A stretch of 64,000 nt of DNA from Candidatus Aminicenantes bacterium (GCA_011772425.1 WVZO01000485.1:40514-104513); one strand, 5' to 3'; positions 28,157 to 63,400 are shown, numbered from the stretch's first letter. Numbers and translations: made by a program. Notes: generated from the letters alone by a model not told the origin.

Positions 28157-28161
28157 TTATC

Positions 28162-35560: not shown

Positions 35561-38500
35561 TCGGAAGCGGAAAAAAATCAATTATTATGTGGTTTTAATG
35601 ATACAAGTTCGCATTATCCCAGGGATAAGACCATCCATGAATTGTTTGAGGAGCAGGCAGATAGAGCCCCGGATAAAGTGGCTGTTGTGATGAATAATGA
35701 GTTCATTAAATACAGAGAATTGAATATGAGAGCCAACCGGGTGGCGAGAATGTTAAGAAAAAAGGGGGTTGGAGCCAACAGTATAGTAGCAATGATGCTG
35801 GAACCTTCAATTAATACTATCATCGGAATATTTGGGGTATTAAAAGCGGGTGGAGCATATTTGCCTATAGACCCGGATTATCCTAAGGATCGGATCACGT
35901 TCCTGCTGAATGACTCCACGGCCAAAATTTTATTGACTGACACAAAGAGCATTAAAAAATACCCTTTTACAGTTTTACAAGGCTTGAATATAACAAATGA
36001 CTCAATACAGGTAAAGGTTACAGGCACTCGTTCGCAGATTAAAGATTTAGATCATTTACCCATACCCAATCGATCCCTGGTGGATTATGAAAAGTACAAC
36101 CAATATATTGGTCAGGCAATGGTAAAGCATTGCATATCCGTGCAATCTACACGAGGATGTCCTTATAAATGTGCATATTGCCATAAAATCTGGCCTAAAA
36201 CCCATGTGTGGCGTTCCGCTGAAAGTATCTTTGCAGAAATAAAGCTTTATTATGATATGGGAGTCAGAAGATTTGCGTTTATCGATGATATCTTCAATTT
36301 GAATATTAAAAACAGTTCACGCGTATTAAATTTGATTATTGAAAATGGGTTGGATATACAGATTTTTTTCCCAAATGGTGTGCGTGGAGATATTTTAACT
36401 AAAGAATACATAGACCTATTGGTCCAGGCTGGAACGGTTGATCTTGCTTTTGCTTTGGAAACAGCGTCACCTCGGTTGCAGAAGCTAATTAGAAAGAATT
36501 TGAACCTTGAGAAGTTTAGAGAAAATCTTGAGTATGTATGCCAAAAATATCCTCATGTGATAGTTGAGCTTTTTACCATGCATGGCTATCCCTCGGAAAC
36601 AAAAGAAGAGGCCAGGATGACTTTGGATTTTATCAAGAGCATAAAATGGCTCCATTTTCCGTATGTTTTTGTTTTGATGATTTACCCCAACACGGATATG
36701 GAGAAATTGGCTTTGGAAAATGGGGTTTCAAGAGAAGCGATTCTTGCGTCCCAGGACAAACCTTTTCATGAATTACCCGAAACCTTACCTTTTGATAAAA
36801 GTTTTACATTAAAGTACCAGACTGAATTTACCAGCGAATACTTTTTATCCAAGGAAAGGCTGGTGCAGGTACTGCCGTATCAACTCAAGATTTTGACAGA
36901 AAGTGAAGTGATTCAAAAGTACAATAGCTATCTCCCGATTGATATTAATTGTTTGGATGATTTATTGGAATTTGCAGGGATTACATACGAGGAGTTGGGC
37001 GTCAAAGGATTACTGAATGAAGATTATATGGAGGTTCCTGATTTAAATAATAAGATGAGAAATGCCTTTGCATCTTCGTCAGTCAGGCCTTCCAAAGGTG
37101 CCCTGCGAGTTTTGCTCCTGGATTTATCCCAGCATTTTAGTAGAGGCAGCGATCAACTCTTTGACCTTATCGAGCCTCCTCTGGGGCTTATGTACCTTAT
37201 GACCTATTTAAACCACCGGTTCGGCAGCAATATTAAGGGAAGAATCGCAAAATCCATGATTGATTTTAACAGCTATGGAGAGCTGAAGTTGTTGTTGGAT
37301 GAATTTAAGCCAGAAATAATCGGAATACGAACATTGACGCTATTTAAAGATTTTTTTCATGAAACTGTCTCAAGGATTCGACAGTTTGGTGTGGATGCTC
37401 CCATCATTGCTGGAGGACCTTACGCTACAAGTACTTATCAGATCCTATTAATGGATCGGAATATTGATCTGGTAGTTCTGGGAGAAGGGGAAATAACTTT
37501 TAGCGAGATAATCGGGAAAATGATCGAGAACGATGGAAAATTCCTTCATGAGCATACCTTAAATAAAATCAGAGGGATTGCATTTATCCCAAAGAGTGAA
37601 GAACTCTCCAATGGCTTGGGCCGAGAGATAATTTTTATGGATGATCTCCCAAAAGAGACGTTAAATGAAGATGGTGAGAATTTACACCATGTCAATCAAC
37701 CCCAGGATTTAGCTTATGTGATTTATACTTCCGGTACCACTGGAAAACCAAAAGGTACACTTACTACTCATTCCAACGTCATCCGGGTTGTCAGGAACTC
37801 AAATTATATTGATTTGACCGAGAATGATAGGATATTACAGTTGTCCAGTTATACATTTGATGGGTCTGTATTCGATATTTATGGAGCACTCTTGAATGGG
37901 GCTTTGTTGCTAATGGTGAAAAAAGAGGATGTGTTATCGCCGGAAGTATTGGCTCAGTTGATTAAAAAGGAGGAGATAACCGTCTTTTTCGTAACAACGG
38001 CATTATTTAATGCTCTGGTTGATATAAATGTCACTTGTTTCGATCCTGTTAGGAAAGTTCTATTTGGGGGGGAACGGGTTTCTGTAAAACATACTGGGAG
38101 AGCTCTGGAATATTTGGGAAAGGACCGGATTATTCACGTTTACGGTCCCACCGAAACAACCGTTTATGCCACCTATTTTTTTGTTAATGAGATAGATAGA
38201 AACCTGGATACTATACCCATTGGTAAGCCAATTTCAAATACTACCGTATTCATACTGGACAATCGTTTTAAACCCGTGCCAATAGGTGTAAAAGGTGAGA
38301 TTTATATAGGAGGAGACGGTGTTGCCAGAGGATATCTAAATAGCCCGGAATTAACCTGGGAAAAATTTATTCCAAATCCTTTTACTGTAGAAGATCGGTT
38401 ATATAGAACTGGAGACCTGGCCCGATGGCTGCTGGATGGAAACATCGAGTTTTTTGGAAGAATCGATCACCAGGTGAAGATAAGGGGATATCGGGTGGAA

Positions 38501-43571: not shown

Positions 43572-43577
43572 TAAAAA

Positions 43578-43584
43578 AAGGAGG
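43578..43584 (+). promoter_or_regulatory. Shine-Dalgarno site of g9 (supports ATG 43591)
   Basis: AAGGAGG, 6 nt before ATG 43591. Confidence 0.8.
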
Positions 43585-43590
43585 AAGGAT

Positions 43591-44320
43591 ATGAATAGAA
43601 ATGTTCTTATTCCTATAGATGGGTTTGAAAATGAAAAGATATATTGGTTGAACAAATTGTCCGGAGAATTAAGTGAAGTAAAGTTAGTGGCCGATTTCCC
43701 AGGGAAGGAATGCTGCAGAACAGCAAATTATAAACTATTATTTGAAAAAGAAATAACACAACACTTAATCCGTATAAGTAAGAATAATGATTTGTCTTTT
43801 TTTGTGATTCTATTGACCTCTTTTAAGATACTGCTTTTTAAATATACCCAGCAGAATGAAATTATCGTCGCATCTCCAACTTATAGTAAAAGCAATCAGA
43901 AGTATAATCGAAATGTAGTGTTTAGAGATTTTATATACCCGGAAATGACCTTTAAGGAAATATTATTGAAAGTTAAACAAACTGTAGGGGAAGGATATAG
44001 AAACCAGTATTTTCCCATTAGACGATTAATCGATTTATTGGATGTAGGAGATACGTTATCATTATTCCGGGTCATTGTATTATTGGAGAATATTCATGAC
44101 AAAGAATCCGTGGATGAGATTACAAGGGATTTTGAGAATGATATTACCCTTTCCTTTCGAAGAACTGGCGAAGAATTGGAAGCCAATGTAATCTACAATT
44201 CAAGTTTGTTTAAGGAGGAAACGGTACAAAGGTTATTTGTTAGTTTTCAGCATGTTTTGATTCAAATATCGGGGAATACCGATATTGAAGTAAAGAACAT
44301 TGAAACGATTCCCAGGGAAG
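43591..44320 (+). other. C-half at the N-terminus of g9
   Basis: MNRNVLIPIDGFENEKIYWLNKLSGEL.. through ..IETIPREVTNEILHEFNKT, with no His motif. Confidence 0.8.
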
Positions 44321-47300
44321 TAACAAATGAAATACTTCATGAGTTCAATAAAACAGAGGTGGAATACCCTGAATATGAAACCATCCACCGGTTATTCGAA
44401 AGGCAGGTGGAGCGAACCCCTGACCATATGGCTGTAGCTTGCATGGAGCATGCAGCCTCCATCACCTATCGGCGGATGAATGAAAGGGCGAATCAACTGG
44501 CACGGGTTCTTAAAGAAAGAGCGGTTGATACGGGATGCATTGTAGGTTTAATGATGCATGATTCAACGGAGATGGCGGTGGCGATCCTGGGAGTATTGAA
44601 GGCAGGAGGCGCATATCTACCCATAGACCCGGATTATCCTCAAGAGCGGAAGGTGTATATAGCTAAAGACAGTCATTTAAATATACTGCTGGTTGGTTCT
44701 TCTCTTTCGGGCGGCATAACGGGAATCCATTCGCCGCTGTTGATTATACCGTTAACAGGCGAAACCCTGGCTGGCTTTGATACTGCGAATCTCCAACGGA
44801 CCGGCAGTGCCTCTGATATCGCTTATGTGATTTATACCTCGGGTACCATGGGCAGACCCAAAGGCGTCGTTGTGGAGCATAAAGGGCTGGTTAACTTTAC
44901 TTACTGGAGGCTTAAATTTCATGGATTCAATGAAAGAGATGTCACACTTCAACTATTTTCTCCGTGTTTTGACGGGTTTGGTTCCAATTTTTATTCCAGC
45001 CTCCTTTCGGGAGGAACTCTCCTGGTGGTATCCGCTTCCAGGAAGCAGGATTATGAATATATAAAAAAAATCGTTGAGCATAAAGGCGTAACAAATGCCA
45101 CTCTTGTGCCTGGAATGTATGAAGCTTTGCTGGACCTTGCCGAAGGGGATGAACTCGAAAGTATCCGGTTTGTGGTGCTGGCAGGGGAAAGAACCAGGGA
45201 GAATATTTTAGAGAAGGCCCTGGAGAAAAATCCCAATGTGATACATATCAATGAATATGGCCCTACGGAAACGACGGTGGGGGCGACAGCCAATGCAAAT
45301 TTGAACAGGGATGATACCGCAGTCATAGGAAAACCCATATCAAATATGCGCGTATATATACTGGACCCTTCTCTTAAGTTGGTTAATGTAGGGGTTCCCG
45401 GTGAGTTGTATATTTCCGGGGTGGGGGTTGCCAGGGGATACCTGAACAATCCGGAGCTTACATCGGAAAAGTTTATTAATAATTCCTTTTTCCCTGGTGA
45501 AAAAATGTACAAAACAGGAGATCTTGCCCGGTGGTGCCCGGATGGCAAAATCGAATTTTTAGGTAGGGTGGATTTCCAGGTAAAAATCAGGGGATTCAGG
45601 ATCGAATTGGAAGCGATTGAGAAACATTTGTTAGAATACCCTCTCATCAAAGAGGCCGTGGTAATTGCTGAGGCTCCTCCCTGGAAACAGGGACACAGCT
45701 CCTATGAAAGTAGCGATAAATTTTTATGTGCTTATATTGTTTCTGATATGGATTTTGTCACCTTTGAACCTGGCTTAAAGGAATTTTTATCCGGGGTCTT
45801 GCCGGATTATATGATTCCCTCGTATTTTGTCCCCATTGAAAAGATACCGATGACCACCACCGGGAAAGTTAATCGAAGGGCGCTGCCAGAGCCGGAAATG
45901 GCAGCGGGGAAAGAGATCGTTGTTACCCCCCCGAGGGATGAAATGGAAGAAACACTGGCCGGTGTCTGGTCCGATGTCCTTAGTATAAATAGAGAGCTTA
46001 TTGGAATTGATAACAACTTTTTTGACCTGGGAGGCCATTCGTTAAAAGCCACCATTGCGTCGGCAAAAATTCATAAAGAACTTCATGTTGATATAAAGTT
46101 GTCGGATATATTCGAATTTCGTACCATCCGTGAGCTGGCAGGATATATCAAGAAAGCTGCCTTGACGACGTATACCTCAATAGAATCGGTGGAAAAAAGG
46201 GATTACTATTTTCTCTCTTCGGCCCAGAAACGGTTGTATATTCTTCAACAGATGGAGCCGGATAATACCAGTTATAATATCCCCATTTTTCTTACCCTGG
46301 AAAAGGGTATTGATGAATTGAAACTTGAGGAGACGTTTAAACGGTTAATTGAAAGACACGAAAGTTTACGAACTTCTTTTGAAATGTTCGATGATGAACC
46401 AGTGCAAAGGGCTCATGAGTTTGTGGAGTTTAAGATGGAATATTTTGAAGCCGGCGGAGATGAAGAGGTCGAGGCGATAAGAAAAAATTTTGTAAGGTTC
46501 TTCGACTTATTTCAAGCACCGCTTCTGCGAGTAGGAGTGATACATACCCCGGTCTTCGGCCAACCCTCTCAAGAGGGGAATTCTAAAGATACCCGCATCC
46601 TCATGGTGGATATGCACCACATCATCACCGATGGGGTCTCACAGGATATATTAACGAGAGAATTGGTGAGACTGTATGAAGGCGAGGAATTATCCTGCTT
46701 ACGACTGCAGTATAAGGATTTTTCAGAGTGGCAGAATGGTGAAGAACAGAAAAAAATAATCGAATCACAGAAATCTTATTGGATGAATGCCTTTTCAGGG
46801 GAAATCCCGGTACTTAATCTTCCGGCGGATTATCCGAGGCCCCGGGTACAAAGTTTTGAAGGGTGCACCTTTCATCTTGCATTAGATGAAACAGAACTCC
46901 GGGTCTTAAAGGATATATCGAGAGAAGCGGAAACAACTCTTTTTATGTCTGTTCTATCGGTTTTTTATATATTACTATCTAAAGTCAGCGGCCAGGAAGA
47001 TATTATTGTGGGTACACCTGCAGCGGGTCGCCAGCATGCTGACCTGGAGCATATCATCGGCATGTTTGTCAACACGCTGGCATTGAGAAACAATCCTGTC
47101 GGCTCAAAAACCTTTTATGAATTTTTACATGAAGTAAAACAAAGAACATTGGAAGTCTTTGAGAACCAGGAATACCAGTTTGAAGACCTGGTGGAGAATG
47201 CGGCGGTAAACATAAACAGGGATGCCAGTCGCAATCCCTTGTTTGATGTCATGTTTGCCTGGGATAAGCAGGAAGATGGCGGTCACCAGGGGGAGGAGTT

Positions 47301-50300
47301 GAATTTAAAACCCTTTAATTTTTCCACTGAAACCTCTAAATTCGATATGACCCTGTTTGCCCTGGAGGAAAAAAACCGGTTGTCTCTTATCGTGGAGTAC
47401 TGTACAAAACTATTTAAAGAAGCAACCATCGAAAGATTTATCGGGTATTTTAAGAAAATTATTACTGAGATTTTCGGGAATCCGGATAGGAAAATATCGG
47501 GAGTTGAAATTCTGTTTGAAACAGAAAAGAGCCTGATATTGCATGGTTTTAATGAAACTGAAATTACCTATCCAAAAGACAGGACCATCCAGGAGTTATT
47601 TGAAGAGCAGGTGGAAAAGACCCCGGGAAAGATCTCCGTGGTTTTTAAGGATAAGCACATCACTTACAACGAATTAAATATGAAGTCCGATCAATTGGCC
47701 GGGGTATTGAGAAGAAAGGGGGTACGGCCGGATACCATCGTGAGTATGATGGCGGACCGGTCCCTGGAAATGGTGATTGGTATATTGGGTATTTTGAAAG
47801 CTGGCGGCGCTTATTTACCCATAGACCCCGGGTATCCGGAGGAAAGAAAGAAGTTTATGTTCAACGACTGCGATTCCCGGATATTATTGACTCAAAAGAG
47901 TTACCTGGATCATGGTGATTTTGCGAGAATCGTCCTTGATATTGAAAGCGATGAGGCCTTTAGAGGGCAGTCACCAGTAAATCTTGACCATTCCCTTTGC
48001 TCCGATAACCTGGTATATGTAATCTACACCTCCGGGACCACCGGGAAACCCAAGGGTACGCTTACCATGCATTACAATGTCACCCGGGTGGTCAGGGATA
48101 CTAATTACATTGATTTAAACTGGGATGACAGGGTGCTGCAGTTATCCAATTATGCCTTTGATGGCTCGGCCTTTGATATTTACGGTGCCCTGTTGAATGG
48201 GGCAGCACTGGTTATGATTAAGCAGGAGGATATACTGGCGGCAGATATCCTGGCTGATTTGATTAAGAGGGAGAAAATATCGGTTTTCTTTGTAACCACC
48301 GCGTTATTTAATACACTGGTGGATATCGGTATAGAAAGCTTTGATGGCATACGGAAAGTATTATTCGGAGGAGAACGGGTATCGATGGATCATGCCGGCA
48401 GAGCGCTGGAATATTTAGGCAAGGATAGAATCATCCATGTTTATGGTCCCACCGAGACGACGGTTTATGCCAGTTATTATTTTATAGATGAGATCGGTGA
48501 AGATTGGGATACCATTCCTATTGGAAAGCCCCTGGCCAATACCACCGCCTATATTCTCGACAGATACCTGAAGCCTCAGCCTATCGGAGTGCCGGGTGAG
48601 ATATATATCGGGGGAGATGGGTTGGCCCGGGGTTATCTCAACAGACCGGTGTTGACTTCTGAAAAGTTTATTGCCAATCCTTTTGGAGAGGGTGAACTCC
48701 TGTATAAGACAGGAGACCTGGCGATTTGGGATACGGATGGCTGTATCACCTTTTTGGGTCGAATTGATCACCAGGTGAAGATAAGAGGGTTCCGGGTGGA
48801 AATGGGGGAAATCGAGAATCATTTATTAAGTCATGAGAAGGTAAAAGAAGCATTCGTAACGGTATTGGAGGGAAGGGGAGGAAGTTCCGGTGGTTCCGGG
48901 GAAGGAGATAGACGTCTTTGTGCATATATTGTGCCCTCATTATCAACGACTGAGCTCGATGTATCCGCACTCAAAGAGTTTTTATCCGGGGAGTTGCCTG
49001 TTTATATGATTCCCACTTATTTTGTGCCGTTGGACAAATTACCCCTGACTCCCAATGGAAAAGTGGACAAGAAGGCTTTGCCTATCCCGGAGTCAGTGGA
49101 AACCGGCAAAGAATATTCTGCTCCCCGGAACCAATTAGAGAGAAAATTGGTGGGATTCTGGTCGAAATTATTGGACGTTGATGGAGGTAAAATCGGGATC
49201 GACGATGACTTTTTCGACCTGGGCGGTCATTCGCTGAAGGCAACGGTATTAATATCGCGAATACAACGGGAGCTGGATGTAAATGTACCGCTGAAAAACA
49301 TCTTCGAAATGCCCACTATAAGGGAACTGGCGCAATACATAAAAGATGCTGTGGAAGAGCAGTATGTGCCGGTATATCTTGTGGAGGAAAGAGAATATTA
49401 TGACTTATCATATGCCCAGCAGCGGTTATGGGTAATATGCCAGTTTGAGAACGAATCCACCGCTTATAATATGCCGGAAGCATTTTTGCTTTCCGGCCGC
49501 TTGAACATCGAATCCCTTGAACAGGCACTACAAAACCTGGTGAAAAGACATGAAAGCGTGAGAACTGTTTTTATCAGGGTGGAGGGCAAACCCAAACAAA
49601 AAATATTTCACGAGTTTTCCTTTGTCCTGGAAAAAGCGGATTTACGTCAGCTCCGGTTACCTGTAAAAAATGAAAAGGTATTGGAAATTACAAATGCCTA
49701 TGCCAATCAGACCTTTGACTTGGAAAAGGGCCCCCTATTCAAAGCAAAACTGGTTCGATTGGAAGATGAAAAAAACTTACTTATTTTCAATATGCATCAT
49801 ACCATTAGTGATGGGTGGTCGTTGGGCATCATGCATAGGGAAATATTCACCTTATATAATGCCTTTTCAAAGGGGAATAAAAACTCTCTTTCACCGGTGG
49901 GGTTGCAGTATAAAGATTATACATTATGGCACAATGAGCAGGTAGAAAAGGGTTGTTATGAAGCAGACAGGCAGTATTGGCTGGAAAAGTTAAAAGACAG
50001 GCCCAACGGTATCGAATTGCCCCTGGATCATCCCAGGAGACCGGTGCAGACCTTTAACGGAGGAAATGTCTATTTTACTATTAAACCTGGAGTAAAATCG
50101 AAGTTTCACCGGTTAAACCGTGAGAAGGAAACTACGATTTTTATGAACTTCTTCACCCTGTTCAGTATATTTATGTCTAAATATACCGGGCAGCAGGATA
50201 TTGTTTTCGGTTCACCCATTGCCGGTCGAAAGCACCCGGAATTGAGAGATTTGATCGGTTTCCTGGTAAATACCCTGGTATTACGTGCTTATATAAACCC

Positions 50301-53300
50301 GGAGGAGAGTTTCACGGCACTGCTTGAAGAAGGCCGGCAGGAGACCCTGGATTCCTATGAACACCAGGATTATCCCTTTAATCTCCTGGTTGAACAATTG
50401 GGCCTGGATCGTGATGTCAGCCAATCTCCCCTGTTCAATGTAATGGTTGCTCACATTAACCTGGGGAAACAGGAAGACAAACTGTTGATGGACGGGATTA
50501 CCCTTGAAGATTCCTCTGAACTTGAGAATTTTAACATGAGTGCCTTTGATTTGATATTTTTTATGGAGGAGGTGGAGGACCATATAAATTGTATATTCAA
50601 TTATAATAGCGATTTATTCGAAGCGGCTACAATCGAACGTATGTCCGTTAATTTCTTAACGTTCCTGGAAAATGCCGTCGATAACCCGGATTTACCGGTC
50701 TCGCAATTGAGTGTGATCGCTGAGGCGGAATCTCGAAAGATAATATGCGAGTTCAATGAAAACCAGCAGGAGTTTCCGTCCCTGACACTCCAGGAGCTCT
50801 TTGAACACCAGGTGGAAAAATCCCCGGGGAAAACAGCCGTTGTTTATTATAAGGATGAAATCACCTATAACGATTTAAATAAGAAAGCCAATCGATTGGC
50901 CCATTACCTAAGAGACCAGTATGGTGTGGGAAAAGGTAAGATTATCGGCATATGTATCGACCGCAGCATCGAGATGGTAACAGCCCTGTTGGGAATCATT
51001 AAAGCCGGGGCGGGTTATGTGGCCATTGATCCCACTTACCCGGAAGATCGCGTATTACATATGCTCAATGATAGTCAGGCTGATTTATTAATCATTGACA
51101 AATTAAGGCCCCACCTGTTTGCAAACTATAAAGGGAAAATGATTGATATCCATTCGGGTTGGACGGATATCTCGTTAAAATCCACTGAAAATCCGGAACT
51201 GATCAATGATTTTTCCGATATCTTGTATGTGATATACACTTCCGGTTCAACCGGGACCCCCAATGGTGCGATGCTGTCTCAGGGGATTTTATCCAATCTT
51301 ATCCAGTGGCAGGAAAATAACACTTCTATCGACGCTTCCGGGCCCTGCTTACAATTTACCTCCGTGAATTTTTGTGTCTCCTTCCAGGAGATAATGATTA
51401 CGCTGACCTCCGGGGGAGAAGTCCACCTGATTGACGATATTGAACGGCGTGATATCGATTATTTAATGGATTTTCTTTCAGAGCATAAAATTGAGTTGTT
51501 GTACTTGCCCTTTTCCTATCTTAATTTTCTATTTAATGAATCCAGCCGATGGGGAGAGAGTTTTAAGCATGAATTAAAGCATATTATCACTGCCGGTGAG
51601 CAATTAAAAATAACCAGGGGATTAAAGGAGTTCCTGGAGTGCAATCGACATATAAAACTGCACAATCATTACGGTTCATCGGAGATGCATGTGGTTACTT
51701 CGTACACCATGGATTATACCGAAGCGGATACCCGTCCCGTTCCACCGGCGGGAAAGCCCATTGCCAACACGAGGATATTTATCCTGGATGAACACCGTAA
51801 TCCCGTACCTATCGGCGTTTGGGGAGAATTGTGCATTGAAGGCAGTTGGGAAGTGGCAGGATATATTAATAACAGAGAACTTACCGATAAGAAGCTTATA
51901 TCCCACCCTGTTTTAAATGAAGGCAATAAACATCTTTATTGTTCCGGCGATATTGGGCGTTGGCTGCCGGACGGCAATATAGAATTGAGGGGAAGAAAAG
52001 ACACGCAGGTTAAAGTTCGGGGTTTCAGGGTAGAACTCAGTGAGATAGAGAGTAAAATATTAGCTGTAGAGGGAGTAAACGATTGTGTGGCAGTCGTGAA
52101 ATCGGATGAGAAGGGAGAGAAATACCTGGCCGCTTATGTGGTGGTGGAAGAGGTTGATGTGGGTGAAATTAAAAAGCAGCTCAACAATTATTTACCCCAG
52201 TACATGATACCCAAATTATTGGTACTGGATAAATTGCCTCTTATGCACAATGGAAAAGTGGATCGAGATAGGTTACCCGACCCGGAAACAATGGTAAAGG
52301 CTATTTATGATATTAAACCGGGTACGGTTTCTTCTTTATTACGTTCAGGGGATTTTCAACCGCAGGAATGGCAAAATATATCGCTCCTGGATGCGGATAA
52401 ATCTACAGTGGAAAAGGTGATTGCCTATTTTACCTCCCTGGTCCGGGATCAATTTCTTGATGAGACCGTTGGGGTGAGCCAGATCGATATTAATGTGCTT
52501 ACCGGGAAGGATAAGGAACGGTTATTGTCGGAGGCGGGTGAACCCGGGGTGTCGTCAAGCCATGACCGAACACTGCAGGGGTTTTTTGAAGAGCAGGTTA
52601 GCGAAACGCCGCGCAATATTGCTGTTATAGAGTATATGGAATGCTCTACTCTCACCTACGAAGAATTAAATAAAAGGTCTAATCAATTAGCCCATCTCTT
52701 AAGAAGAAAAGGCGTTCAACCGGGCACTGTGGTGGGAGTGATGATAAAACCTGGCATAGAGATGATTATCGGGATAGCCGCTGTTTTAAAGGCGGGAGGC
52801 GGTTACCTGGCCGTGGACCGGGACCTTTCATCAGACGAAGCGATTGCATTGTTAAAAGAGAACAATGTCTCAATGGTGTTGAGCAGCACCGCTGCCATGG
52901 GTAAACATCCTTTTAAAAAATTCCTGGGATTTGCAACAAACGGGGTAGAACCTCATATTTCCTGCATCCGCCAGCAGATCACTGATTTTAACGGTTTACC
53001 CATTCCTGACCGGTCGCTGGTGGATTATGAAAAGTACGGTAAAAATATCGGTTTGGCCATGGCTAAGCATACCATTACGCTGCAAGCCACCCGAGGTTGT
53101 CCTTATAATTGCCTTTATTGTCATAAAATCTGGCCGAAAAAACATGTGATTCGTTCGGCGGAAAATATTTACCAGGAGCTTAAGCTTTACTACGACATGG
53201 GCGTTCGCCGGTTTGTGTTTGTGGATGATATTTTTAACCTGGATATGGAAAACAGCAAGAAATTCTTCGAAGCCATCATTGCCAACGGCCTGGAGGTTCA

Positions 53301-56300
53301 GCTTTTCTTTCCCAACGGCTTACGCAGCGATCTGTTAACCAGAGATTATATTGACCTGATGGTAAAGGCAGGAACGGTTTCGCTGGGGTTGGCCCTGGAG
53401 ACCGCCTCGCCCCGGCTGCAAAAGTTGATTAAAAAGAACCTGAACCTGGAGAAACTCCATGAAAACCTAAAGTATCTTTGCTCCCATTATCCCCAGGTGA
53501 TCGTAGAGCTTTTCTTGATGCACGGTTTTCCCACTGAAACCGAAGAAGAAGCCCGGATGACTTTAGATTTCCTTAAAAGTCTCAAGTGGATCGATTTTCC
53601 CTATTTTCATATCCTGAAGATTTATCCCCATACGGATATGGCTGAGATGGCGGTACAAAACGGCGTATCGGCAGAGGCCATCGCCCGTTCGGCAGACCTG
53701 GCATATCACCAATTGCCTGAAACCCTTCCCTTTGATAAAAGCGTTACCCTTCGCTTCCAGACTGAATTCTTGAATGACTATTTCCTCCGAAAAGACCGGT
53801 TGTCGGCCAAACTCCCCTATCAAATGAGGGTATTGACAGAAGATGAAATCGTCCAAAAATACAACAGCTACCTGCCGGTGGACATTAAAACCTTTGAAGA
53901 TTTCCTGGATTTTGCCGGCATTTCAAAAGAAGAATTGATAACCCTGGAATTCCTGGATGAGGAAGCGGTATCAACTCCCGGTTTAAATGATAAACTCATG
54001 GATCATTTTCCTGTAAATAAACCGGGTAAGAATGCCTTAAGGATTTTGCTGCTGGATTTATCCCAGTTTTTCAGTGGAGAAAAAGATATTCTTTATGATG
54101 GTGTAGAGCCGCCGTTGGGTTTGATGTACTTGCTGACCTGGTTAAACCGGCAATTGGGAAACAAAATTGCCGGGAAGATTGCCAAATCACGCATCGATTT
54201 TGACAATTATAAGCAATTGAAAGCCCTGCTTGATGAGTTTCAAGCGGATATAATCGGCATACGAACCTTAACCTATTATGGAGATTTCTTCCATAAAACG
54301 GTTTCCCTTATCCGGCAGTGGGGCATCGATGTTCCCATTGTAGCAGGGGGCCCATATGCTACCAGCGATTTCGCCACTATTTTGCAGGACCCCAATGTAG
54401 ATCTGGTGGTATTGAGTGAAGGTGAGTTAACATTTTGTGAATTGATGGAAAAAGTCCTGGAAAATAACGGTGAGCTGCCGGATGACAGTGTGTTAAGAGA
54501 TATCCCCGGGCTCGCTTTTATCCCCGGTACCCATAAAGATGATCGTTACCGTAAAGAGAAGCGGGAAATTCTCCTGTTGGACGAGCTCAGGGATATGTTG
54601 AGTGAAGAGCCGGATAAAAACCCTGAACCTGTTAATGAGCTGACCGATCTGGCTGCTGTCATCTATGGGACTGGTTCAAACCGGCAGCAAGTCAGACTCC
54701 CGGTGTCGCATAAAAATGCAATTCAAATGCTATCCGGGTTAAGGGAAGATTTTTATGCCGGGTACAACAGCAGCGGCGGTGCGGAATTCCCGGTGATGAT
54801 CGGTTCATGGGTATTTAACGGTTCCCTGGAACAACTGTTTGCAGCCCTGCTGCAAGGGGGAACGCTGTGTGTGCCCCCGGGAGATACCCGCATTGATGAT
54901 ATCGGTTTATTGGAGTATTATAAGGAACGGAATAAGGAATCCGCCGGGACTTTCCTACACCTGCGGTTAATGTGGAAAGGCGGTCATAAAGGTATGAAGC
55001 AACTTCCAGGTGAGGAAGATTATACAGCACCCACCAACCAAATAGAAGAAGTTTTAGTGGATATCTGGTCGGAGGTCCTGGGAATAGGCAAAGACATGAT
55101 TGGTATTGATTCCGACTTTTTTGAGGTGGGAGGGCATTCCTTGAAAGCCACTATCGTGGTATCCAAAATACATAAAAAATTCAATGTAAGAGTACCGTTG
55201 GCTGAGATGTTTAAAGCCTCTACCATCCGTGAGTTGGTCCAATATATAACGGAAGCCTCTAAAGTTGAATACACCCACGTGGAGGCAGCGGAGGAGAAGG
55301 AATATTACCCCTTATCTCCGGCACAAAAGCGGTTGTATATTGCGCAGCAATTCGACTTGAAGAGTTCCGGTTACAATTTGCCCCGTATATTTATTCTGGA
55401 GGGAAAACCGGATGCAAAGAAGATGAATGATACCTTTAAGCAAATGATTGAAAGACATGAAAGCTTTCGATCGTCTTTTATAAATGTAAATGATGAGCCG
55501 GTCCAAAAAATCCGTGATCATGTGGAATTTGGAATCGAAGATTATCAGGTTGAAGTTGACGTTCCCATTGAGGAGATAACCCGGGGCTTCATTCGTGCTT
55601 TTGACCTATCGCAGGCACCGCTGCTGCGGGTGGGATTGATGCATATGGGAAAAGAAAAATATATCCTGATGATGGATATGCATCATATCATCACGGACGG
55701 TATTTCCATGGCGATTTTCGTCAACGAATGGATGGCCCTGTACTGTGGAGAGGAATTACCGGCGTTAAAGCTTCATTACAAGGATTATTCGGAGTGGCAA
55801 GGGCGGTTGTGGAAAAATGACTCCCAGGCTCTGGAAAGCCAGGAAAACTTCTGGTTGAAGCAGTTTGAAGGTGAAATATCCGCATTGACTCTCCCATTGG
55901 ACTACGAGAGACCGGGCGTATTTCAGTTTGAAGGGAAGCAATACATTTTTGAAATAGGCAAAGAAGAGACAGAGGCATTAAGAAACGTGATAAAAGAGGA
56001 AGATGTAACTCTTTTTATGTTTTTGCTTGCGGTTTTTTATGTTTTGTTGGCAAAAACCAGTGGTCAGGGGGACATCGTGGTGGGAATCCCGGTGATGGGA
56101 CGAAGGCATGCCGATTTTCAGTCGATAATCGGGATGTTCGTCAACTCCCTGGCCTTGAGGAATTACCCCGAAGCAAAGAAAACCTTCAAAGAATTCTTAA
56201 TGGAGTTAAAAGAAAGAGCTTTGAAGGCATTTGATAACCAGGACTACCAGTTTGATGAATTAGTGGATAGGTTGGATATTGAACGGAAACCCAATCGAAA

Positions 56301-56649
56301 TGCGCTTTTTGATGTGATGTTTGGGATGCAAAATCTTGGCGATCAAACGCAGGATGTATTGGAAATATCAATTCCCGGGTTGAAGTTAACGCCTTATGAT
56401 GATGAAAGCAAAGTTTCGAAAATTGACCTGGTTTTTTATGCCTATGAAAAAGTCGAAGGAATCGATTGCCTGTTTGAGTACAGTACAAAATTGTTTAAAC
56501 CAGAAACCATTGAGATATTGAAAGATCGTTACATCATCTTACTTAAGAGGATATTGGCAGACCTGGATTGCAGGATTGGGGACCTGGATTATCGAACCGA
56601 AGTAGAAAAAGAGTTAGACAAAGTCGAAGATGTCGGCTTTGATTTCTGA
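43591..56649 (+). CDS. g9 NRPS, C-half / A / T / C / A / T / C / A (no T) / decayed A shell carrying an rSAM+B12-like cassette / T / C / tail
   Basis: The ORF track starts at 43555. I prefer ATG 43591, which has AAGGAGG at 43578-43584. The N-terminus ..FENEKIYWLNKLSGEL.. is the C-terminal half of a C domain only. T motifs: GGHS 46030-46041, 49222-49233 and 55129-55140. C His motifs: HHIITDG 46615-46635, HHTISDGW 49795-49818, HHIITDG 55681-55701. rSAM motif CPYNCLYC at 53098-53121. Ends ..KVEDVGFDF. Confidence 0.95.
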   Translation: MNRNVLIPIDGFENEKIYWLNKLSGELSEVKLVADFPGKECCRTANYKLLFEKEITQHLIRISKNNDLSFFVILLTSFKILLFKYTQQNEIIVASPTYSKSNQKYNRNVVFRDFIYPEMTFKEILLKVKQTVGEGYRNQYFPIRRLIDLLDVGDTLSLFRVIVLLENIHDKESVDEITRDFENDITLSFRRTGEELEANVIYNSSLFKEETVQRLFVSFQHVLIQISGNTDIEVKNIETIPREVTNEILHEFNKTEVEYPEYETIHRLFERQVERTPDHMAVACMEHAASITYRRMNERANQLARVLKERAVDTGCIVGLMMHDSTEMAVAILGVLKAGGAYLPIDPDYPQERKVYIAKDSHLNILLVGSSLSGGITGIHSPLLIIPLTGETLAGFDTANLQRTGSASDIAYVIYTSGTMGRPKGVVVEHKGLVNFTYWRLKFHGFNERDVTLQLFSPCFDGFGSNFYSSLLSGGTLLVVSASRKQDYEYIKKIVEHKGVTNATLVPGMYEALLDLAEGDELESIRFVVLAGERTRENILEKALEKNPNVIHINEYGPTETTVGATANANLNRDDTAVIGKPISNMRVYILDPSLKLVNVGVPGELYISGVGVARGYLNNPELTSEKFINNSFFPGEKMYKTGDLARWCPDGKIEFLGRVDFQVKIRGFRIELEAIEKHLLEYPLIKEAVVIAEAPPWKQGHSSYESSDKFLCAYIVSDMDFVTFEPGLKEFLSGVLPDYMIPSYFVPIEKIPMTTTGKVNRRALPEPEMAAGKEIVVTPPRDEMEETLAGVWSDVLSINRELIGIDNNFFDLGGHSLKATIASAKIHKELHVDIKLSDIFEFRTIRELAGYIKKAALTTYTSIESVEKRDYYFLSSAQKRLYILQQMEPDNTSYNIPIFLTLEKGIDELKLEETFKRLIERHESLRTSFEMFDDEPVQRAHEFVEFKMEYFEAGGDEEVEAIRKNFVRFFDLFQAPLLRVGVIHTPVFGQPSQEGNSKDTRILMVDMHHIITDGVSQDILTRELVRLYEGEELSCLRLQYKDFSEWQNGEEQKKIIESQKSYWMNAFSGEIPVLNLPADYPRPRVQSFEGCTFHLALDETELRVLKDISREAETTLFMSVLSVFYILLSKVSGQEDIIVGTPAAGRQHADLEHIIGMFVNTLALRNNPVGSKTFYEFLHEVKQRTLEVFENQEYQFEDLVENAAVNINRDASRNPLFDVMFAWDKQEDGGHQGEELNLKPFNFSTETSKFDMTLFALEEKNRLSLIVEYCTKLFKEATIERFIGYFKKIITEIFGNPDRKISGVEILFETEKSLILHGFNETEITYPKDRTIQELFEEQVEKTPGKISVVFKDKHITYNELNMKSDQLAGVLRRKGVRPDTIVSMMADRSLEMVIGILGILKAGGAYLPIDPGYPEERKKFMFNDCDSRILLTQKSYLDHGDFARIVLDIESDEAFRGQSPVNLDHSLCSDNLVYVIYTSGTTGKPKGTLTMHYNVTRVVRDTNYIDLNWDDRVLQLSNYAFDGSAFDIYGALLNGAALVMIKQEDILAADILADLIKREKISVFFVTTALFNTLVDIGIESFDGIRKVLFGGERVSMDHAGRALEYLGKDRIIHVYGPTETTVYASYYFIDEIGEDWDTIPIGKPLANTTAYILDRYLKPQPIGVPGEIYIGGDGLARGYLNRPVLTSEKFIANPFGEGELLYKTGDLAIWDTDGCITFLGRIDHQVKIRGFRVEMGEIENHLLSHEKVKEAFVTVLEGRGGSSGGSGEGDRRLCAYIVPSLSTTELDVSALKEFLSGELPVYMIPTYFVPLDKLPLTPNGKVDKKALPIPESVETGKEYSAPRNQLERKLVGFWSKLLDVDGGKIGIDDDFFDLGGHSLKATVLISRIQRELDVNVPLKNIFEMPTIRELAQYIKDAVEEQYVPVYLVEEREYYDLSYAQQRLWVICQFENESTAYNMPEAFLLSGRLNIESLEQALQNLVKRHESVRTVFIRVEGKPKQKIFHEFSFVLEKADLRQLRLPVKNEKVLEITNAYANQTFDLEKGPLFKAKLVRLEDEKNLLIFNMHHTISDGWSLGIMHREIFTLYNAFSKGNKNSLSPVGLQYKDYTLWHNEQVEKGCYEADRQYWLEKLKDRPNGIELPLDHPRRPVQTFNGGNVYFTIKPGVKSKFHRLNREKETTIFMNFFTLFSIFMSKYTGQQDIVFGSPIAGRKHPELRDLIGFLVNTLVLRAYINPEESFTALLEEGRQETLDSYEHQDYPFNLLVEQLGLDRDVSQSPLFNVMVAHINLGKQEDKLLMDGITLEDSSELENFNMSAFDLIFFMEEVEDHINCIFNYNSDLFEAATIERMSVNFLTFLENAVDNPDLPVSQLSVIAEAESRKIICEFNENQQEFPSLTLQELFEHQVEKSPGKTAVVYYKDEITYNDLNKKANRLAHYLRDQYGVGKGKIIGICIDRSIEMVTALLGIIKAGAGYVAIDPTYPEDRVLHMLNDSQADLLIIDKLRPHLFANYKGKMIDIHSGWTDISLKSTENPELINDFSDILYVIYTSGSTGTPNGAMLSQGILSNLIQWQENNTSIDASGPCLQFTSVNFCVSFQEIMITLTSGGEVHLIDDIERRDIDYLMDFLSEHKIELLYLPFSYLNFLFNESSRWGESFKHELKHIITAGEQLKITRGLKEFLECNRHIKLHNHYGSSEMHVVTSYTMDYTEADTRPVPPAGKPIANTRIFILDEHRNPVPIGVWGELCIEGSWEVAGYINNRELTDKKLISHPVLNEGNKHLYCSGDIGRWLPDGNIELRGRKDTQVKVRGFRVELSEIESKILAVEGVNDCVAVVKSDEKGEKYLAAYVVVEEVDVGEIKKQLNNYLPQYMIPKLLVLDKLPLMHNGKVDRDRLPDPETMVKAIYDIKPGTVSSLLRSGDFQPQEWQNISLLDADKSTVEKVIAYFTSLVRDQFLDETVGVSQIDINVLTGKDKERLLSEAGEPGVSSSHDRTLQGFFEEQVSETPRNIAVIEYMECSTLTYEELNKRSNQLAHLLRRKGVQPGTVVGVMIKPGIEMIIGIAAVLKAGGGYLAVDRDLSSDEAIALLKENNVSMVLSSTAAMGKHPFKKFLGFATNGVEPHISCIRQQITDFNGLPIPDRSLVDYEKYGKNIGLAMAKHTITLQATRGCPYNCLYCHKIWPKKHVIRSAENIYQELKLYYDMGVRRFVFVDDIFNLDMENSKKFFEAIIANGLEVQLFFPNGLRSDLLTRDYIDLMVKAGTVSLGLALETASPRLQKLIKKNLNLEKLHENLKYLCSHYPQVIVELFLMHGFPTETEEEARMTLDFLKSLKWIDFPYFHILKIYPHTDMAEMAVQNGVSAEAIARSADLAYHQLPETLPFDKSVTLRFQTEFLNDYFLRKDRLSAKLPYQMRVLTEDEIVQKYNSYLPVDIKTFEDFLDFAGISKEELITLEFLDEEAVSTPGLNDKLMDHFPVNKPGKNALRILLLDLSQFFSGEKDILYDGVEPPLGLMYLLTWLNRQLGNKIAGKIAKSRIDFDNYKQLKALLDEFQADIIGIRTLTYYGDFFHKTVSLIRQWGIDVPIVAGGPYATSDFATILQDPNVDLVVLSEGELTFCELMEKVLENNGELPDDSVLRDIPGLAFIPGTHKDDRYRKEKREILLLDELRDMLSEEPDKNPEPVNELTDLAAVIYGTGSNRQQVRLPVSHKNAIQMLSGLREDFYAGYNSSGGAEFPVMIGSWVFNGSLEQLFAALLQGGTLCVPPGDTRIDDIGLLEYYKERNKESAGTFLHLRLMWKGGHKGMKQLPGEEDYTAPTNQIEEVLVDIWSEVLGIGKDMIGIDSDFFEVGGHSLKATIVVSKIHKKFNVRVPLAEMFKASTIRELVQYITEASKVEYTHVEAAEEKEYYPLSPAQKRLYIAQQFDLKSSGYNLPRIFILEGKPDAKKMNDTFKQMIERHESFRSSFINVNDEPVQKIRDHVEFGIEDYQVEVDVPIEEITRGFIRAFDLSQAPLLRVGLMHMGKEKYILMMDMHHIITDGISMAIFVNEWMALYCGEELPALKLHYKDYSEWQGRLWKNDSQALESQENFWLKQFEGEISALTLPLDYERPGVFQFEGKQYIFEIGKEETEALRNVIKEEDVTLFMFLLAVFYVLLAKTSGQGDIVVGIPVMGRRHADFQSIIGMFVNSLALRNYPEAKKTFKEFLMELKERALKAFDNQDYQFDELVDRLDIERKPNRNALFDVMFGMQNLGDQTQDVLEISIPGLKLTPYDDESKVSKIDLVFYAYEKVEGIDCLFEYSTKLFKPETIEILKDRYIILLKRILADLDCRIGDLDYRTEVEKELDKVEDVGFDF
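44350..45890 (+). other. g9 A1; code DGSTVAEVGK (closest to the Tyr-type signatures DGTITAEVAK / DASTVAAVCK)
   Basis: FDGFGSN.., ..VTNATLVPG.., ..VVLAGE.., NEYGPTETTVGAT, TGK. Same A subfamily as the g3 A domain. Confidence 0.5.
47550..49085 (+). other. g9 A2, uninterrupted; code DGFFLGVVYK (Ile signature)
   Basis: A2 core at 47794-47829 and A3 core at 48010-48057 are only 181 nt apart. FDGSAFD.., ..ISVFFVTTA.., ..VLFGGE.., HVYGPTETTVYAS. Confidence 0.7.
50760..52290 (+). other. g9 A3; Pro-type code with Asp235 replaced: CVQYIAHVVK. No T domain follows
   Basis: NFCVSFQE (Cys codon TGT at 51373-51375 where FD is expected). P-loop TSGSTGTPNG (Asn codon at 51262-51264 for the usual Lys). YGSSE for YGPTE. 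EGSWEVAGY for the A6 core. Confidence 0.7.
52540..52880 (+). other. N-terminal (A1-A2) part of the decayed A-domain shell in g9
   Basis: ..RTLQGFFEEQVSETPRNIAVIE..LTYEELNKRSNQLAHLLRRKGV... The A2 core is degenerate: LKAGGGYLAVDR at 52786-52821, against LKAGGAYLPIDP elsewhere. Confidence 0.75.
52984..54560 (+). other. Embedded cassette 2 (g9): radical SAM domain followed by a B12-binding-like domain
   Basis: DFNGLPIPDRSLVDYEKY..LQATRGCPYNCLYC (53098-53121) ..ALETASPRLQKLI... From ~54037: LRILLLDLSQ..PPLGLMYLLTWL..ADIIGIRTLT..PIVAGGPYATS..DLVVLSEGELTFCEL..IPGLAFIP. Confidence 0.85.
54652..55020 (+). other. C-terminal remnant of the decayed A-domain shell in g9
   Basis: AAVIYGTGSNRQQ (54652-54690) replaces the A3 core AYVIYTSGTTGKPKG. 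Only ~123 aa separate it from the T-domain leader, against ~364 aa in g7. No A5-A10 cores are present. Confidence 0.75.
56620..56646 (+). other. C-terminal tail of g9: KVEDVGFDF
   Basis: Last 9 codons before the stop. Confidence 0.65.
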
Positions 56650-60400: not shown

Positions 60401-63400
60401 GGTGTTTGCATTGCAAAACCTGGAGAAAGAGGAAAAGCGAATTCCTGGTTTGATAATGGAACCTTACTGGCATGAACGTACTATACCCAAATTTGACCTG
60501 GTTTTTGTGGGGAAAGAATTAGAAGATACAATATTATTTTCTATTGAATACTGTACAAAGCTGTTCAAAAAGGAAACCATAGCAAAATTCATTGAATATT
60601 TTAAGAAAATAGTATCTGAAGTTCTTAAGGACCCGGGAAGAAAGATCGCTGAGGTAGAGATTATATCGGAGGATGGGAAGCATAAAGTATTGTATGATTT
60701 TAATCGAACCAAGACCCAATACCCCGGAGAAAAAAACCTTCATCAATTATTTGAGGAACAGGTAGAGAAGAGGCCGGAAAAAATAGCCTTAGTAGGCAGT
60801 ACTCAGTATGCAGTAAGCAGTAAAAACAAAGCTGGAGAAGTGGGGCAATTAACCTACCGGGAATTGAATGCAAGATCCAATCAATTGGCGCGATTTTTGA
60901 AGAAAAAAGGAATTTCAACGGATACCTTTGTAGCTATGATGATGGATCGTTCACCGGAGATGATCGTTGGCATACTGGGCATCCTCAAGGCTGGGGGAGC
61001 TTATTTGCCTATTGATCCCGGGTATCCTCATAATCGCATTGAATCCATGCTGGAGGATTCCAATTCATCTATTCTTTTAACAGAAACCGGTGGTGTTGAG
61101 GATCATCATGTATTTACTGGGTTGCAGGGTTTGGAATCCAGTGATGTATCTTTGCAGATCACGGCTCCCAGGCCTCAGATCCTGGATTTTGATGGTTTAC
61201 CTATACCGGACCGTACCCTTATCGATTATGAAAAGTATAATCGATATATTGGGCAGGGGATGGTAAAACATAGTGTCAACCTCCAGGCAACACGGGGTTG
61301 CCCCTATAACTGTGCTTATTGCTGCCGGGTCTGGCCGAAGAAAAATGTGATACGCTCGGCGGAGAATATTTATGCAGAGGTAAAAATGTATTACGAGGCG
61401 GGGGTCCGCCGGTTCGTATTTATTGATGATATTTTTAATTTAAACATCCCCAACAGCAGTCGATTTTTTGAATTGGTAATCAAAAATAATTTAAAGGCGC
61501 AGTTTCTCTTTCCCAGTGGGCTTCGGGGTGATATATTAACAAAAGATTATATTGATCTGATGATGGAAGCAGGAACCATCAGTTTTCCCCTGGCGTTGGA
61601 GACGGCTTGCCCCAGGCTTCAAAAGTTCATTCGGAAACACCTGGATCTCGATAAAGTCCGGGAAAACCTGGAATATATAATGGCAAAATATCCACAGCTT
61701 ATCCTGGAACTTCATACCATGCACGGCTTCCCCACAGAAACCGAAGAAGAAGCAATGATGACATTGAATTTTATTAAAAGCCTGGAGCGCATTCATTTTC
61801 CTTATGTTCACATCTTGAAGATTCATCCCAATACCGGTATGGAGAAACTGGCTCTTGAAAATGGGGTTTCAAAAGAGGCCATCGCCTACTCAAGGAACCT
61901 GGCTTACCATGAACTGCCGGATACGTTACCATTTAAGAAAAGTTTTACAAAAAATTATCAATCGGATTTTTTCAACAATTATTTTCTTTCCAAAAACCGC
62001 CTGCTCCAGGTACTTCCTTATCAAATGAGAACGTTAACCGAGGATGAAATTGTCCAGAAATACAATAGCTACTTGCCCGTAGACATACATAGTATTGAAG
62101 AATTGCTGCAATTCCTGGGGATCGAAAGGTCTCAACTGGGGGTGGAATCTTGTCTGGATGAAGCGAGTATTGCTGTTCCCAATTTAAATGTGAAATTGGA
62201 AAAATATTTCCCCAAGAAAAGGTCTACTGATGGGTTGAGGGTTTTACTGTTGGATTTGTCGCAGTTTTTCACCACTAAAAGCGATATGCTTTATGATGTG
62301 GTGGAGCAGCCGTTGGGGCTCCTTTACCTGATGACCTATATAAACCGGAAGTATGGCGATAGAATTACCGGCAAGATCGCCAAATCCCGTATTGATTTTG
62401 ATAGTTATGGGGAATTAAAGGCTCTTTTGCAGGAATTTAAACCCGATGTCATTGGGATTCGTTCTTTGACCTATTACAGGGAATTCTTTCACCGGACGAT
62501 TGCCATGATACGGCATTGGGGATTCGATGTACCGATTATTGCAGGTGGGCCTTATATTACGGTTGAGTTTAAATCCGTTTTAAAGGATGCGAATATTAAT
62601 TTAGCTGTTCTTGGAGAAGGGGAGAATACCTTTGGTGAAATTATCGGTAAGATACTGGAAAATAAAGGAAAATTACCCGGGGAAGAGGTATTAGAAAAAA
62701 TTGTCGGGATTGCTTATGTTCCCGGAAGAACAGGCGCGAAGGCGGGAAAAGCCAGGGAAATCTTCATGTTGGACCTGCTCCAGGAACAATTATGCAAAGA
62801 ATCTCGTGAGAATTTAGAGCCGGTCAATCAATCCCATCATCTATCTTACAGCATATTTACTTCCGGTTCCACGGGCAAACCCAAGGGGACCCTTACCACT
62901 CATTATAATGTCAGCCGGGTGGTCAGGGATACCAATTATATCGATTTAACTGAGGATGACAGGGTATTGCAGTTATCCAATTATGCTTTTGATGGTTCTA
63001 CCTTTGATATATATGGGGCTCTATTAAATGGTGGAACGCTGGTAATGCTAAAAAAGGAGGAAGTATTATCTATTGATATTTTATCTGGTTTGATCAAAAG
63101 GGAAAATATCTCGGTATTTTTTGTCACCACGGCGATGTTTAATGCCCTGGTGGATGTGAATATCGGTTGTTTAGACAGTGTGCGCAGCGTGTTGTTTGGG
63201 GGGGAGCGGGTATCGGTGAATCATACCAGGCGTGCATTGGAACACCTGGGACCGGGTAAAATCATCCATGTATATGGTCCCACTGAAACCACGGTGTATG
63301 CAACATATTATAGGGTGGATCAGCTAGATGAAGCGTTAGGAACCGTACCCATAGGTAAACCTATATCCAATACCACCATTTATATACTGGATAAATATAT

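Follow-up and report, generated by a model that had tools for sequence, protein, structure and literature searches.

We analysed a stretch of 64,000 nucleotides (the window) from Candidatus Aminicenantes bacterium (GCA_011772425.1, WVZO01000485.1:40514-104513) and, within it, the third module of the nonribosomal peptide synthetase (NRPS) gene g9. In our judgement this is probably a working elongation module of layout C-A-[rSAM/B12]-T, in which a condensation (C) domain and a complete adenylation (A) domain are followed by a cassette with a radical S-adenosylmethionine (SAM; rSAM) half and a cobalamin (B12)-type half, and then by a thiolation (T) domain. The cassette is enclosed in the vestigial shell of another A domain and would tailor the T-tethered residue by radical chemistry. 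An initial annotation had listed, downstream of a T-less A domain, a C-domain-end remnant, an A1-A2 segment, a complete cassette, a substitute for the A3 core and a stretch lacking the A5-A10 cores before an intact T domain. All five elements are present in that order and position, in one open frame.

Anatomy of the third module of g9

Gene g9 is a single uninterrupted open reading frame (ORF) of 4364 aa (43555-56649; plus strand, as are all features of the window given below). Its third module opens with a C domain (g9 aa 1916-2363; 49300..50643), recovered by phmmer with a C-domain seed from the window at 237.5 bits, and continues with a complete and presumably active A domain of code CVQYIAHVVK (aa 2411-2912; 50785..52290), which covers positions 1-383 of the 384 of Pfam AMP-binding (E 2.1e-72) and carries AMP-binding_C. 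No T domain lies directly 3′ of it. After its A10 core comes a linker (aa 2913-2948; 52291..52398) that is weakly conserved (10-22% identity) among relatives with the g9 layout, which we call type II, and then a vestige that combines the C-terminal ~20 aa of a C domain with a C-A linker, VEKVIAYFTSLVRDQF...ILTGKDKERLLSE (aa 2949-3005; 52399..52569). This C-end remnant is too short for a C-domain profile match; BLASTP, however, places g9 from aa 2949 in line with the C-domain end and C-A linker of g7 (aa 413 onward). It can be aligned in all type II relatives and is kept also in P0248, a related NRPS protein of four modules that aligns colinearly with g9 from end to end.

The A1-A2 fragment of a former host A domain follows (the N-shell; aa 3006-3113; 52570..52893), matching AMP-binding positions 1-99 of 384 (E 1.8e-21) and positions 6-113 of the phmmer A-domain seed, with a degenerate A2 core, LKAGGGYLAVD, starting at nt 52786. 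The cassette itself spans 560 aa (aa 3131-3690; 52945..54624; Radical_SAM E 4e-21, B12-binding E 1.3e-10). Its CxxxCxxC [4Fe-4S] motif, CPYNCLYC, lies at 53098..53121, the three Cys being invariant in sets of 118 and 57 homologues. The B12-binding envelope (PF02310), with GGPYAT and SEGE motifs, lies at 54100..54444 (41.6 bits against a cutoff of 32.1), and in the AlphaFold2 (AF2) model the first Rossmann strand is at about nt 54037. Beyond the cassette, the C-shell (aa 3692-3793; 54628..54933) is a vestige running from A3 through the A4 region (VFNGS). It was matched (positions 7-103, E 4.4e-11) by a host-A profile that we built from 44 intact host A-to-T regions and that is sharper than Pfam. 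The A3 core is replaced by AAVIYGTGSNRQQ at 54652-54690, and the A5-A10 cores are missing, positions 104-369 of the host-A profile being unmatched after the cassette. By eye, GGHKGMKQLPGEE ahead of the T domain had looked like a vestige of the host A10 core; this profile gave no support, and the idea was dropped. The match resumes over an A-T linker and an intact T domain (aa 3818-3898; 55006..55248; profile positions 370-448, E 5e-31; PP-binding E 8.3e-19), whose phosphopantetheine Ser stands in GGHS at 55129-55140. The C domain downstream (aa 3885-4320; 55207..56514; phmmer C seed, 399.5 bits) is the presumed acceptor of the modified residue. The module thus holds a C domain, a complete A domain with its A10 Lys (K517) and a T domain with GGxS, all in a single frame.

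What are the flanks of the cassette? Three copies of a cassette of ~555 aa were detected in the window with seeds from the window's own domains, in g7, g9 and g10. The copy in g7 (aa 597-1148; 36017..37672) interrupts an otherwise complete A domain between its A2 and A3 cores, and that in g10 (aa 1479-2030; 61155..62810) occupies the same place in an intact A domain of code DGFFLGVVYK. The g9 copy shares this site, lying between the A2 core (52786) and the A3 remnant (54652), but host A domains complete from A1 to A10 are found only in g7 and g10. From the C-domain end through the C-A linker, A1-A2, cassette and A3 to the A4 region, g9 and g7 are colinear at 50% identity over 818 aa, the alignment stopping past A4; identity of this extent to an intact interrupted A domain excludes a chance resemblance. 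Together with the alignment of relatives and the host-A profile, this colinearity identifies the flanks as vestiges of a C-A(cassette) module.

The shell is, as far as its sequence tells, the dead remains of that module. Its A3 P-loop reads YGTGSNRQQ, the position of Asp235 is occupied by Asn and A5-A10 are missing, so that it should be unable to adenylate. Coverage of AMP-binding, which the initial annotation had suggested checking, consists of positions 1-99 of 384 and then a sub-threshold match to 119-252 of 384 (E 4e-4), and no complete A domain follows the cassette. The shell of g9 is the best preserved among type II members, and only here is an A3 remnant recognisable. Between g9 and the other members, identity is 7-28% in the C-end remnant, 21-44% in the shell (22-44% in the N-shell) and 43-55% in the T domain.

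We consider it possible, if somewhat doubtful, that the shell still has a use, as a folded support or a surface for docking, in placing the cassette with respect to the A, C or T domains. The N-shell has been kept in at least seven divergent lineages, that of g9 is still 41-43% identical to functional A1-A2 regions, the N-shell plus cassette also occurs as discrete tandem proteins of ~725 aa between NRPS genes (the P0079 family and locus L073), and AF2 folds the shell confidently. This confidence, however, is inherited from intact homologues in the multiple sequence alignment (MSA), and the shell evolves much faster than the cassette, its core motifs drifting freely among relatives. Moreover, it is absent from free-standing cassettes and from modules in which the cassette follows a full A domain directly (type III, below), and P0248 does without an N-shell.

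A graded series of architectures and the origin of the g9 layout

An exhaustive phmmer search (E <= 1e-30) returned 1014 representatives of the cassette at 50% identity clustering, and the top 150 of them are nearly all NRPS proteins of 1,000-7,500 aa. Among the source names are Ca. Aminicenantes, Deferrimicrobium, Acidobacteriota, Clostridia, Halanaerobiales, Bacteroidales, Desulfobacterota, Omnitrophota and Melioribacteraceae, and a few cultured strains; the family comes mostly from lineages known as anaerobes. No locus in the genome collection is more than 67% identical to the g9 segment. We classified 75 cassettes from 71 genome loci (L numbers) and 134 more from the representatives (P numbers). 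In most of them, 55 from the genome loci and 119 from the representatives, the cassette sits inside an intact A domain (type I). The g9 layout, namely full A, N-shell, cassette, 85-143 aa and T (type II), accounts for 5 and 9, respectively, plus borderline cases. Junctions identical to those of g9 occur in L001, L002, L017, L027, L031 and L051, and the same domain order in P0247, P0249, P0256, P0300, P0321 and P0322. In the multiple alignment the type II members have common junctions, with a 5′ join ~40 aa after A10, the C-end remnant, and a 3′ stop just past A4. P0248 is an intermediate, having lost the A1-A2 N-shell, in which the C-end remnant and some of the C-shell survive. Type III modules have no shell and consist of a full A domain, ~15-50 aa, the cassette, ~45 aa and T (L018/P0020, L024, L026/P0059, L039, P0134 and L055). 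Finally, free-standing cassettes lie between NRPS genes (type IV; L050 with two, L067, L068 and P0115).

The cassette thus occurs at three sites within A domains, behind an A domain, N-terminally in a protein (P0065), in tandem and free-standing. The two sites other than A2-A3 are seen in L025 (ORF at 16434), where it is inserted between A-domain profile positions ~257 and 261, and in P0242, where it occupies, between positions ~463 and 470, the a8-a9 site that is classical for methyltransferases; in P0242 there is also an A(cassette)-A-T arrangement with no T separating the two A domains. P0001, from an NRPS cluster, is a protein of 1122 aa made of two tandem cassettes, and L050 carries two adjacent free-standing cassette genes in an NRPS cluster (9935-13330). 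In L073 (5802-10175; Aminicenantes GCA_050049735.1) two tandem ~725-aa proteins each contain an A1-A2 fragment, the cassette, a C-A-linker-like stretch and a YDF tail, and are flanked on one side by a gene with a C domain and C-A linker at its end and on the other by a gene that opens with a full A domain.

In a neighbour-joining tree of 83 cassettes, which carries no support values, g9 groups with L001, L002, L017 and L051, and the type III cassettes of L018, L024, L026 and L039 are nested inside this group. The nesting, together with the common junctions, indicates one old event followed by stepwise erosion. At least one relocation appears to have been independent, since the post-A cassette of L055 is sister to the type I cassette of the same protein. 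The forms line up as a graded series, from a cassette embedded in an intact A domain to the shell of g9, a part shell, a clean A-cassette-T module and a free-standing protein, an order read from sequence comparison. That the cassette is independent of its host A domain, as the initial annotation argued, is borne out by the clean A-cassette-T modules (P0020, P0059, P0134 and L055) and by the free-standing and tandem forms.

The cassette is also intact and, by sequence comparison, the best conserved part of g9 and seemingly under strong constraint. Every family-invariant residue (45-47, in alignments of 118, 57 and 45 homologues) is kept, including the three cluster Cys, a GFPTE-type motif and the Rossmann GGP and GEGE motifs. 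Cassettes of other type II members are 55-77% identical to it, and P0248 reaches 69.8% in the cassette against 44.8% over the remainder of the protein. This bears on the possibility that the module is a pseudogene or an assembly chimera, broken in this genome only. The degenerate A2 and A3 cores and a module without its own T domain could be taken that way. Yet the frame is open over 4364 aa, the cassette and T domain are strongly conserved, and identical junctions recur in independent assemblies from several phyla, so that we reject this explanation as highly improbable. The idea that the decay is peculiar to this genome is likewise contradicted by the same junctions in at least six other lineages, in metagenome-assembled genomes labelled Aminicenantes, Deferrimicrobium, Acidobacteriota and Clostridia, and by the nesting of type III. 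By these comparisons the g9 layout is an old, conserved and spreading module type, not a local accident.

By what route did it arise? The initial annotation proposed that two former modules were fused by deletions that removed a T-C unit and most of the host A domain. The vestiges fit such a fusion, which we favour modestly, but a transplant competes with it, in which a fragment from C-end to A4, cassette included, recombined into the A-T linker of an ordinary C-A-T module with a Cys235 A domain (described below), with no T-C deletion. We rate the transplant as a serious alternative, a little short of an even chance. Ordinary C-A(Cys235)-T-C modules that lack a cassette abound in the same phyla (P0121, P0123-P0127, P0135 and P0142), and the host-A profile picks up nothing of a host A10 core ahead of the T domain. 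The two-module ancestor that fusion calls for, A(Cys235)-T-C-A(cassette), is absent from the 71 loci; a metagenome scan gave three loci, none informative, and inspection of the P0142 and P0135 contigs for it revealed ordinary modules only. The T domains of types II and III have a mean identity of 51% to the T domains of cassette-less Cys235 modules (nearest P0123, P0127 and P0129) versus 43% to those of intact hosts, which leans weakly to the transplant. This difference, however, is small, since ordinary T domains of the window score 49%, and it is confounded by the domain that follows T. P0123, moreover, may be a type III module that has lost its cassette, and both routes would leave the same junctions.

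Proposed chemistry and the partner A domain

The cassette consists of a radical-SAM barrel, a helical middle and a C-terminal cobalamin-type Rossmann domain. It shares with class B radical SAM enzymes a radical SAM core (PF04055, E 4e-21) with CxxxCxxC and a cobalamin-type Rossmann domain (PF02310), but in class B the B12 domain is N-terminal to radical SAM and here the order is reversed. The radical-SAM half aligns with the second half of class B models (PhpK, ApyD, BchE and others), and the last ~130 aa align with the N-terminal B12 domain of KedN5 (NF033712) and TokK. Against g8, a stand-alone B12 rSAM protein of the window with canonical order, the cassette-family hidden Markov model (HMM) matches in swapped order, its positions 35-207 falling on g8 aa 247-417 and positions 424-502 on the N-terminal domain of g8 (aa 115-202). 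The cassette is therefore circularly permuted relative to the class B architecture. AF2 modelled it with a mean predicted local distance difference test score (pLDDT) of 88.4 alone and 87.1 together with shell and T. Foldseek searches with the latter model were dominated by NRPS matches, so the cassette-only model was used; it matched AprD4, MgmA, MiaB/RimO, TsrM, CysS, OxsB, TokK and Mmp10, as well as the cobalamin domains of MetH and methylmalonyl-CoA mutase (MCM). The class B affinity follows from the NCBIfam, PDB-sequence and Foldseek matches to PhpK, ApyD, KedN5, MgmA, TsrM, CysS and TokK.

On these grounds the cassette probably carries out a cobalamin-dependent radical modification, C-methylation being favoured, of the residue tethered to the T domain. 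The anatomy shows that the cassette once sat within an A domain, in the A2-A3 position where the g7 and g10 copies remain, and that it now stands between a different, complete A domain and T, flanked by non-functional vestiges of the old host. In the mechanism that we propose, the Cys235 Pro-like A domain would load the only available T domain, whose phosphopantetheine arm would present the thioester to the radical-SAM active site. There a 5′-deoxyadenosyl radical would take a hydrogen from an unactivated sp3 carbon, methylcobalamin would deliver the methyl group, and the downstream C domain would receive the modified residue. Precedents exist for both the substrate type and the reaction: CysS, ThnK and TokK are cobalamin rSAM enzymes using pantetheinyl substrates (PMC8950095), and DscE C-methylates a nonribosomal peptide, converting Val to tert-Leu in discodermin (PMC12858407, section 10).

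A reading to which we give appreciable but minority weight is that the cassette is a radical SAM enzyme other than a methyltransferase, acting by dehydration, epimerisation, cyclisation or cross-linking, and that its Rossmann domain may not bind cobalamin. AprD4, the first match among solved structures both by sequence and by fold, is a 1,2-diol dehydratase that is not known to use cobalamin, so methylation is not assured. No curated NCBIfam cutoff was reached by the cassette: scores were 97.7 against 600 for PhpK (TIGR04479), 97.6 against 750 for ApyD (NF050148), 53.2 against 700 for KedN5 (NF033712) and 42 against 281.85 for the RiPP C-methyltransferase model TIGR03975. Class B itself includes non-methylases such as OxsB and BchE (PMC8950095). 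Against such a reading, the B12-binding domain scores above the Pfam cutoff, the GGP..T and GEGE-type motifs are invariant across the family, and characterised class B members are mostly methylases. An epimerase would be needless, as the cluster already has canonical epimerisation (E) domains; E-like domains follow GGDS-type T domains in g1 and g7, and we regard this role as unlikely.

The position of AprD4 and the distance of all methylase models from their cutoffs (97.7 against 600 at best) weigh against our proposal of a working C-methylating module, and so do several further points. Cobalamin binding is a prediction from fold and motifs. The AF2 confidence for the shell derives from an MSA dominated by intact A domains, and the cassette tree has no support values. 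In addition, the remnant code of the shell begins N/D-G, which suggests that the old host was not of Pro type and hence that the substrate would have changed after relocation.

The A domain that would supply the substrate of the g9 module is distinctive. Stachelhaus positions were read against the GrsA sequence, which itself reads DAWTIAAICK with K517. The code CVQYIAHVVK is Pro-like at nine of ten positions (compare DVQ[FLY]IAHVVK), with Asp235, the amine-binding residue of the A-domain pocket, changed to Cys. The A3 (TGTPNG) and A5 (NHYGSSEMH) cores of this domain are also unusual. CVQY[IV]AHVVK recurs in the upstream A domain of nearly all type II and III modules, the exceptions being L055, P0244 and P0329. 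The Cys235 subfamily nests among Pro-type DVQFIAHVVK domains and occurs also in plain, cassette-less C-A-T-C modules. Host codes in type I are diverse, including Thr-like DFWNIGMVHK, Pro-like DVQFIAHVVK and Glu/Gln-, Leu-, Ile/Val- and Asn-like codes, assignments that follow published codes. Such diversity fits a chemistry at a position common to many residues, for example C-beta.

Cluster context, known systems and meaning

A hybrid cluster of NRPS and polyketide synthase (PKS) genes, on the plus strand only, fills the whole window, with NRPS subunits g1, g3, g4, g7, g9 and g10. Two PKS modules lie amid the NRPS genes (23360-34185), which points to a hybrid product; g5 is ketosynthase (KS)-acyltransferase (AT)-ketoreductase (KR)-acyl carrier protein (ACP), and g6 has the same KS-AT-KR-ACP order followed by a C domain. 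The intact host A domain of g7 (37672-38830) has the unusual code DGFARSVVYK and precedes a GGDS-type T domain, an E-like domain and a C domain. Outside the NRPS subunits, the B12/radical-SAM proteins are the stand-alone g2 and g8. The former (5800-7707), whose exact protein sequence is also present in a Logan assembly (ERR2564004), has an N-terminal CDGSH-type iron-sulfur zinc-finger region (PF09360, two stretches), and the latter (41874-43571) is of canonical order and scores above the curated cutoff of the PhpK P-methyltransferase family (TIGR04479, 652.6 bits against 600). Both g8 (41874) and g9 (43555) were called from TTG by the ORF finder, and the 5′ end of g9 overlaps the 3′ end of g8; a likelier start for g9 is the ATG at codon 13 (MNRNVL..., 43555-43593 region).

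Several subunits end in short acidic-aromatic tails (DFGF, DFDF, DFDI, DFEL or EFSF), found at the C-termini of g1 (5710), g2 (7707), g6 (34185), g7 (41884), g8 (43571), g9 (56649) and a gene ending near nt 290. Similar tails are carried by the stand-alone rSAM proteins g2 and g8 and by the free cassette proteins P0001, P0115 and P0079. The subunits next in line open, at the N-termini of g1, g3, g9 and g10, with a half-C-domain-like region of ~165 aa that has a YWxxxLxGEL motif. Tails and N-termini look like a docking system that might also recruit trans-acting rSAM enzymes.

How does the module compare with known systems? Interrupted A domains with an embedded methyltransferase at a2-a3 or a8-a9 (KtzH, TioS and TioN) have reportedly been reviewed by Labby, Watsula and Garneau-Tsodikova in 2015. 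As in these, a tailoring domain is spliced into A (at A2-A3 in g7 and g10, at a8-a9 in P0242) and would presumably work on the residue that the module's T domain carries. Unlike in these, the insert is a ~555-aa Fe-S/cobalamin radical enzyme and not a class I SAM methyltransferase, and the g9 host A is dead, the substrate coming from a second A that stands apart from it. N-methylating C-A-MT-T modules, where MT is a methyltransferase domain, are known from cyclosporin and enniatin synthetases. The analogy with such modules drawn in the initial annotation is apt, for the layout is adenylation, in-cis tailoring and carrier, and type III members such as P0020 and L039 match it cleanly. The expected chemistry differs, being radical C-H attack instead of reaction of a nucleophilic N, and the domain would be oxygen-sensitive and has vestigial A flanks.

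Among cobalamin rSAM enzymes, PoyB and PoyC of polytheonamide and the bottromycin beta-methylases (one of them for proline) catalyse C-beta methylation of many residues. This broad range fits the wide host A specificities seen here, but their substrates are ribosomal precursors and the similarity is at superfamily level (TIGR03975). In Mmp10 the cobalamin domain is of a different domain type; Mmp10 has, like the cassette, its radical SAM domain N-terminal and its cobalamin-binding domain C-terminal (PDB 7qbt, 7qbu), but it is a weak Foldseek match (E ~5e-6, root-mean-square deviation ~15). AprD4 (PDB 6fd2) is the closest solved match for the radical SAM half (sequence E 6.8e-15; Foldseek E 2e-12, target-normalised TM-score, TMt, 0.49) and differs in its canonical domain order, aminoglycoside substrate and free-standing form. 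DscE (PMC12858407), CysS (PMC8950095; PDB 9n1b), ThnK and TokK belong to the same superfamily, with Foldseek matches, and methylate unactivated carbons of phosphopantetheine (Ppant)-linked or nonribosomal peptide substrates; they are separate proteins with the B12 domain first, whereas the cassette is covalently part of the synthetase and circularly permuted.

In full-text literature searches, whose coverage is incomplete so that absence is not proof, we found no description of a radical SAM domain within an NRPS module. The parts are of known kinds (interrupted A domains, in-cis NRPS tailoring and class B radical SAM enzymes), and it is the large family that we did not find described. We think it about evenly balanced whether permuted cobalamin rSAM domains in NRPSs form, in full, a large and portable in-cis tailoring class (~1000 representatives) doing radical C-H functionalisation, probably C-methylation, in which g9 is an intermediate, coupled to a Cys235 A domain, of a move that takes the cassette out of an A domain and to the A-T junction.

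The natural series from embedded to free-standing cassettes is a guide to the domain boundaries that are tolerated, which may serve engineering. Cassettes also occur in cultured organisms, namely Clostridium puniceum DSM 2619, Desulfosediminicola flagellatus IMCC35005, Desulfopila sp. IMCC35008 and [Clostridium] polysaccharolyticum DSM 1801. The pairing with a Cys235 Pro-like A domain suggests that the building block is an uncharacterised one. Should the cassette be active, oxygen-sensitive rSAM/cobalamin chemistry would take place in cis on the NRPS line, a new kind of integrated tailoring domain would stand beside the MT, KR, oxidase (Ox) and E domains, and there would be an enzymatic route to C-methylated nonribosomal residues of the tert-leucine or beta-methyl type, comparable to those of polytheonamides, bottromycins and discodermins.

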